Below, piece after piece: positions 5,965-6,258 of a DNA stretch of 9,852 nucleotides. This stretch comes from a virus (Duplodnaviria; Heunggongvirae; Uroviricota; Caudoviricetes): positions 1 to 9,852 of IMG/VR virus record IMGVR_UViG_2778261346_000016; one strand, 5' to 3'. The notes below the pieces were generated by a model. That model searched no databases and was not told the origin of the DNA. It saw only the letters and a program-made list of their open reading frames with translations. Each line of letters opens with the position of its first letter. The stretch's first letter is position 1. Made by a program: the position numbers and the translations under genes.

Positions 5965-6258
5965 TCAGTCATTACTGATAGCGCCATAGCGTGAGCGGTA
6001 ATTACGCAGGCGCGGGTCAATTTCAGGGAAGTGGGTATATGTGGCTTTGCGGAATGGTCGGATTGATGTCTGGTAAATTCGCTCGCGTTCTTCTTTCTCT
6101 GCAAGCCATATACAGTGGCGAAATTCCTTTTCCTCTTTCGTTTCCTGCGGTAGAGACATTATTCGATCGTAGTTTTTTCTGAATTTATCCAGCACCTCCG
6201 ATACGGAATTGCCGGAACAGCGGCGCGGGTCATCCGCACCATACAGAGGCGCTGGCAT
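5965..6258 (-). CDS. hypothetical protein, 97 aa (sits where P22 has abc2, by synteny only)
   Basis: ATG 6258..6256 with AAGGA SD about 8 nt upstream. Lies immediately downstream of the erf/ssb-like pair. Confidence 0.55.

Follow-up and report, generated by a model that had tools for sequence, protein, structure and literature searches.

Downstream of the erf recombinase gene of an Escherichia coli lambdoid prophage lies a small gene in the position where phage P22 carries abc2. The locus raises the question whether this gene encodes the RecBCD modulator Abc2, whether the copy is intact, and whether it is surrounded by the same partners as in P22. The window, that is the whole stretch of 9,852 nucleotides analysed here (IMG/VR record IMGVR_UViG_2778261346_000016, Caudoviricetes), begins with xis (1-192) and extends through the leftward early region in the direction of the immunity region. 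A preliminary description had placed a 97-aa protein in the abc2 slot of P22. Both the size and the position were found to hold, the order being erf, a middle gene, the ORF under study and a DUF2737 gene.

Identity and reading frame of the gene

Read on the minus strand, positions 5965-6258 form an ORF that starts with ATG, stops with TGA and encodes 97 amino acids. It is a full-length copy with a good ribosome-binding site (Table 1). The Pfam family PF11043 (Anti-RecBCD_p2; 'Bacteriophage P22, anti-RecBCD protein 2') spans residues 1-97 of the product on profile positions 1-97, with a score of 212.7 bits against a gathering cut-off of 25 (E=6e-64). The PDB chain 'Anti-RecBCD protein 2' (8B1T/8B1U) matched the same residues 1-97 with E=2e-58, and PHROG 656 'abc2 anti-RecBCD' was matched with E=2.6e-55. 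BLASTP against P22 Abc2 (AF217253), the check suggested in the preliminary description, did reveal similarity, with 91 of the 97 residues identical (94%) in a gap-free alignment. The earlier guess, made from synteny and size, is thus borne out by PF11043, the 8B1T chain, PHROG 656 and the P22 protein itself, and the expectation of a RecBCD modulator within the recombination module was correct, the ORF being identified as Abc2. The NCBIfam search with seven proteins of the window, Abc2 included, gave no matches; the naming of the genes therefore rests on Pfam, PHROG and PDB.

Six substitutions separate P22 Abc2 from the product of the window gene: L32R, A65S, K76H, I78P, D86N and N97D. At the codon level, 15 differences from P22 are synonymous and 6 non-synonymous, which points to purifying selection on abc2. 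Judged from the sequence, the ORF is very probably a functional orthologue of P22 Abc2, expressed from the PL operon of the prophage along with Erf, SSB-like and gp33-like proteins. The gene is a known and routinely annotated one, and the allele brings nothing new.

Two overlapping frames were rejected as genes. The 104-aa ORF at 5790-6104, which overlaps abc2, results from over-extension by the ORF lister to the first TTG; homologues were found only for its last 54 aa, from the ATG at 5954 (DUF2737, P22 ORF56). The 63-aa plus-strand ORF at 5991-6182 was likewise not accepted as a real gene. In the promoter scan, promoter-like sites were no more numerous than in shuffled sequence, and the terminator scan of the minus strand between erf and abc2 gave no terminator-like site.

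Table 1. Features of the leftward operon around abc2 (window positions)
Feature	Positions	Strand	Basis
kil, upstream marker of the PL operon recombination region	7527..7679	-	Pfam PF06301 Lambda_Kil, E=1.7e-20; PHROG 2055
gp33-like small acidic protein, 56 aa	7360..7530	-	53/56 identical (95%) to HK446 gp33; slot of P22 arf
erf, single-strand annealing recombinase, 201 aa	6665..7270	-	Pfam PF04404 ERF, E=2.4e-44
SSB-like protein, HK97 gp40-type, 127 aa	6282..6665	-	95% identical to HK97 Gp40; PHROG 44; slot of P22 abc1
Shine-Dalgarno AAGGA	6266-6270	-	7 nt upstream of the abc2 ATG; read directly from sequence
abc2, anti-RecBCD protein 2 (predicted RecC-binding RecBCD modulator), intact	5965..6258	-	PF11043; PDB 8B1T/8B1U; P22 Abc2 identity
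DUF2737 small protein, 54 aa	5790..5954	-	Pfam PF10930, E=8e-32; 77% identical to P22 ORF56
EaE/Oad2-related protein, 159 aa	5332..5811	-	41% identical to HK446 gp27 (Oad2), E=1e-38

Conservation of the RecC contacts and Pro68

The cryoEM structure of the complex of P22 Abc2 with E. coli RecBCD (Wilkinson et al. 2022, PMC9836394) allowed the substitutions to be placed within it. The contact residues were taken from Figure 4-source data 1 of that paper, which holds hydrogen-bond and salt-bridge partners only. All 15 residues of Abc2 with such polar contacts to RecC (A3, R13, C14, S15, G16, Y30, I33, M34, L36, E39, K41, K44, E45, R47 and H48) are unchanged in the window protein. The records that match the window belong to Stx-converting phages and to prophages of E. 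coli, and the solved complex likewise used E. coli RecBCD.

Residue Pro68, which is taken up by the active site of the host prolyl isomerase PpiB and whose replacement in P68A abolishes the co-purification of PpiB (PMC9836394), is also present. It is invariant in an alignment of seven Abc2 homologues reaching down to 36% identity. The sole substitution inside the ordered, helical, RecC-bound part of Abc2 is L32R. This exchange might conceivably touch a hydrophobic contact with RecC, as the table lists polar contacts only. Position 32 is R in HK542 and L in HK97 and HK446, and both forms are therefore natural variants.

Gene neighbourhood and type of the module

On the minus strand the genes follow each other in the order kil, gp33-like, erf, SSB-like, abc2, DUF2737 and the EaE/Oad2-related gene. 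In P22 the corresponding slots are occupied by arf, erf, abc1, abc2, ORF56 and eae, and abc2 is a PL operon gene there as in the window, coming after erf and directly before ORF56/DUF2737. P22 Abc2 also shares its length, its 15 RecC contacts and Pro68 with the window protein. The two systems differ in the host (Salmonella for P22, E. coli for the window), in the six Abc2 substitutions, and in having abc1 and arf on the one side and SSB-like and gp33-like genes on the other.

The middle gene was ruled out as abc1: P22 Abc1 gave no BLASTP alignment with the 127-aa protein at E<=100, and the protein belongs instead with HK97 Gp40 and PHROG 44. The arf gene was similarly ruled out for both small ORFs upstream of erf. 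Comparison of P22 Arf with the ORF at 7360-7530, which is gp33-like, gave only a 7-residue [FW]SDEEFI match, and comparison with the ORF at 7281-7451 gave no similarity. Of the P22-like synteny claimed earlier, the slots of erf, the middle gene and the ORF thus stand, but the occupant of the middle slot is an SSB-like gene of the HK97 gp40 type and not abc1. The P22-like phage setting has to be revised in the same way, the element being an E. coli lambdoid prophage of the Stx-converting type although the identity of Abc2 is retained.

From the nature of the middle gene it follows that the recombination module is of the described HK97/HK022 type (gp33-like, Erf, SSB-like, Abc2) and not of the P22 type (Arf, Erf, Abc1, Abc2). 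All four genes were found in order, with identities of 95% for gp33, 95% for gp40 and 96-100% for Abc2, and the HK97-type phages have Erf-like genes annotated in the corresponding place. The module DNA is 96-97% identical to that of HK97, HK022, HK446 and HK542 over 1.7 kb. In these four phages, where Abc2 (Gp39 in HK97, gp30 in HK446) is 96-100% identical to the window protein, abc2 is annotated and the order kil, gp33-like, erf, SSB-like, abc2, DUF2737 is the same. The window element is a longer prophage of the Stx-converting type with more ea-region genes downstream, which is no difference of substance.

The individual neighbours were characterised as follows. The product of erf is 75% identical to P22 Erf in an alignment starting at MSKEFY, and RefSeq annotates the gene as a 606-nt 'ERF family protein'; its start is probably the ATG at 7270, the listed TTG at 7300 being an over-extension. 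The 127-aa protein matched PHROG 44 'single strand DNA binding protein' with E=1.3e-27 and ends in ...YDDSIPF, which includes a C-terminal tip like that of host SSB, DDSIPF. It gave no Pfam or NCBIfam match, and a sequence search of the PDB was without significant match. The predicted fold of HK97 gp40 has led to its classification as SSB-1b (PMC12315714), and on PHROG 44 together with these published fold predictions the window protein is designated SSB-like. HK97 Gp40 itself ends in ...DDSNPI.., so that not all members of the gp40 family have the canonical IPF tip.

Downstream, the DUF2737 gene begins 10 nt past the abc2 stop. The 159-aa protein that follows it is 34% identical to P22 Eae over 82 aa and belongs to PHROG 614. 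HK446 gp27 (Oad2) has been reported as an anti-OLD protein in a 2026 bioRxiv preprint (10.64898/2026.07.10.737580), and a 54%-identical homologue from HK75 was without OLD inhibition in the same work; at the distance of the window protein the Oad2 function is therefore not transferable. Further upstream, a 90-aa ORF at 8506-8778 on the minus strand has an arginine-rich N-terminal stretch, NARNRRRARRQAQREQ, and no NCBIfam match; it is probably an N-type antiterminator gene heading the PL operon. The 9.85-kb window holds one Chi octamer (GCTGGTGG), on the minus strand at 4084-4091, and none on the plus strand.

The region just upstream of erf is occupied by two 56-aa minus-strand ORFs, at 7281-7451 and 7360-7530, which lie in different frames and share 92 nt. 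Two extra nucleotides in HK97 fuse both frames into one 83-aa ORF (Gp42.1), and the split form is common to the window and HK446. The annotation varies accordingly: PGAP takes 7281-7451, and the HK446 and HK542 records take the gp33-like frame, 7360-7530. The N-terminus of the gp33-like protein, WSDEEFI, resembles FSDEEFI of P22 Arf, which is encoded in the same slot upstream of erf; the resemblance hints weakly that the two proteins have a motif in common.

Partners of Abc2 in the HK97-type module

The replacement of Abc1 and Arf by the gp40-type SSB-like and gp33-like proteins may bear on the function of Abc2 itself. The protein could be Abc2 by descent and yet work with these other partners, such that the output of RecBCD or the loading of Erf differs from that in P22. 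The reading agrees with the lack of similarity between the middle gene product and Abc1, with its SSB-like DDSIPF tip, and with a gp33-like gene in the arf slot whose product has only the seven-residue motif in common with Arf. The preprint cited above adds that HK75 Gp33 expressed alone triggers the toxicity of P2 OLD, a sensor of RecBCD compromise, with a strength equal to that of the complete rec locus; a Gp33 is likewise encoded by HK446, whose rec locus triggers OLD when expressed. Gp33 was proposed there as a new RecBCD inhibitor or manipulator (10.64898/2026.07.10.737580). Because Gp33 alone acts on OLD like the whole rec locus, these results hint that Abc2 is not the sole RecBCD manipulator of the HK97-type module and perhaps not the dominant one.

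Abc2 homologues are found beside still other recombination genes in Stx phages. In the Stx2a phage Stx2_PV12-16, the genes before a homologue with 63% identity encode a Sak4-like P-loop protein (GESGTGKST) and an SSB-like protein of 195 aa that ends in DYPPF, and Erf and gp40 are absent from that slot. As Abc2 is paired either with Erf or with a Sak4-like P-loop recombinase, it is modular as regards its recombinase partner, and the pairing with Sak4-like recombinase and SSB also speaks for a change of partners. Against such a change stands the full conservation of the RecC contacts and of P68, so that the primary target of Abc2 should be the same as in P22. Moreover, the title of Murphy 2000 states that P22 Abc2 can also act with lambda Bet, a heterologous annealing protein, and on that statement the core activity of Abc2 would be independent of Abc1 and Arf. 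A functional change of this kind is accordingly considered possible, though on the unlikely side. The more specific proposal, that Abc2 hands the ssDNA generated by RecBCD to Erf jointly with the SSB-like protein of gp40 type and the gp33-like protein, in place of Abc1 and Arf, is doubtful.

Intactness and spread of abc2

The window matches the Stx2c-converting phage Stx2_5044 (LC645426) at 100% identity. The same degree of identity holds for a prophage of the E. coli O145:H28 strains RM12581 and RM13514, apart from an IS3-family insertion in its abc2; in RM12581 this prophage adjoins sbcB. The interrupting element, whose end reads TGAACCGCCCCGGG, is inserted at codon I66, two codons before Pro68, and the three bases GAT (window 6060-6062) are apparently duplicated at the insertion. 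PGAP annotates two pseudogene fragments of a 'phage anti-RecBCD protein' at the insertion in RM12581 and RM13514, and the copy in the window is intact.

The gene might on this ground be taken for a decaying or unexpressed prophage remnant without current function: it belongs to a prophage element, it is split at about codon 66 in the closest complete genomes, and the prophage persists in both strains despite the disruption. The full length and good ribosome-binding site of the window copy argue against such decay, as do a protein sequence identical to the copies in the phage records Stx2_5044 and PhiR12_2_star and the preponderance of synonymous differences from P22. Decay is thus considered very improbable, and an intact abc2 gene is preferred.

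The distribution of the gene is wide. abc2 DNA is present in 1101 of 5426 complete E. coli genomes, about one in five, where it is annotated as 'phage anti-RecBCD protein', and 225 phage records have a match to the protein. Copies that are identical or nearly so are already annotated in HK97, HK022, many Stx phages and about 20% of the complete E. coli genomes.

Proposed action on RecBCD

The support obtained here for the Abc2 function consists of protein identity, conservation of the contact residues, intactness and operon context. The binding to RecC and the hijacking mechanism are inferred for the window protein from the work on P22 (Murphy 1994/2000; Wilkinson et al. 2022, PMC9836394). Going by homology, roughly the first 52-66 residues would form extended helices on the Chi-recognition ('inactivated helicase') domains of RecC, and Pro68 would engage the host prolyl isomerase PpiB. 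Binding and unwinding of DNA by RecBCD would be left substantially unaffected, unlike the effect of Gam or gp5.9, and RecBCD carrying Abc2 would become unresponsive to Chi. In the current model the ssDNA product of RecBCD would then reach Erf, the annealing protein of the phage, and not RecA; RecBCD would thus be hijacked by Abc2 and not inactivated. The steps after RecC binding are only a model for P22 Abc2 as well.

Lambda Gam and T7 gp5.9 are likewise small phage proteins that are encoded near recombination genes and counter the anti-phage action of RecBCD. They differ from Abc2 in sequence and in occupying the DNA-binding site and shutting the enzyme down, whereas Abc2 binds RecC and helicase activity is kept. 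That the window protein is a total inhibitor of this sort, a DNA mimic blocking the DNA-end binding site, is extremely improbable: nothing specific favours it beyond the generic expectation for a small phage protein beside a recombinase, the protein has a predicted pI of 9.0 and is thus basic, in contrast to Gam and gp5.9, DNA mimics described as highly acidic, it has no sequence relationship to either of them, and its homologue P22 Abc2 sits on RecC at a distance from the DNA entry site, with the unwinding activity essentially unchanged (PMC9836394).

Significance

The main value of the result lies in annotation, as the recombination module of the window does contain a RecBCD modulator. Abc2 is a textbook case of RecBCD hijacking as opposed to inhibition, and it bears on recombineering and on defence systems that detect when RecBCD is interfered with, retrons and OLD among them. 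If the doubtful joint action with the SSB-like and gp33-like proteins were true, RecC-bound Abc2 would be one half of a two-pronged manipulation of RecBCD, with a set of partners that differs from that of P22.
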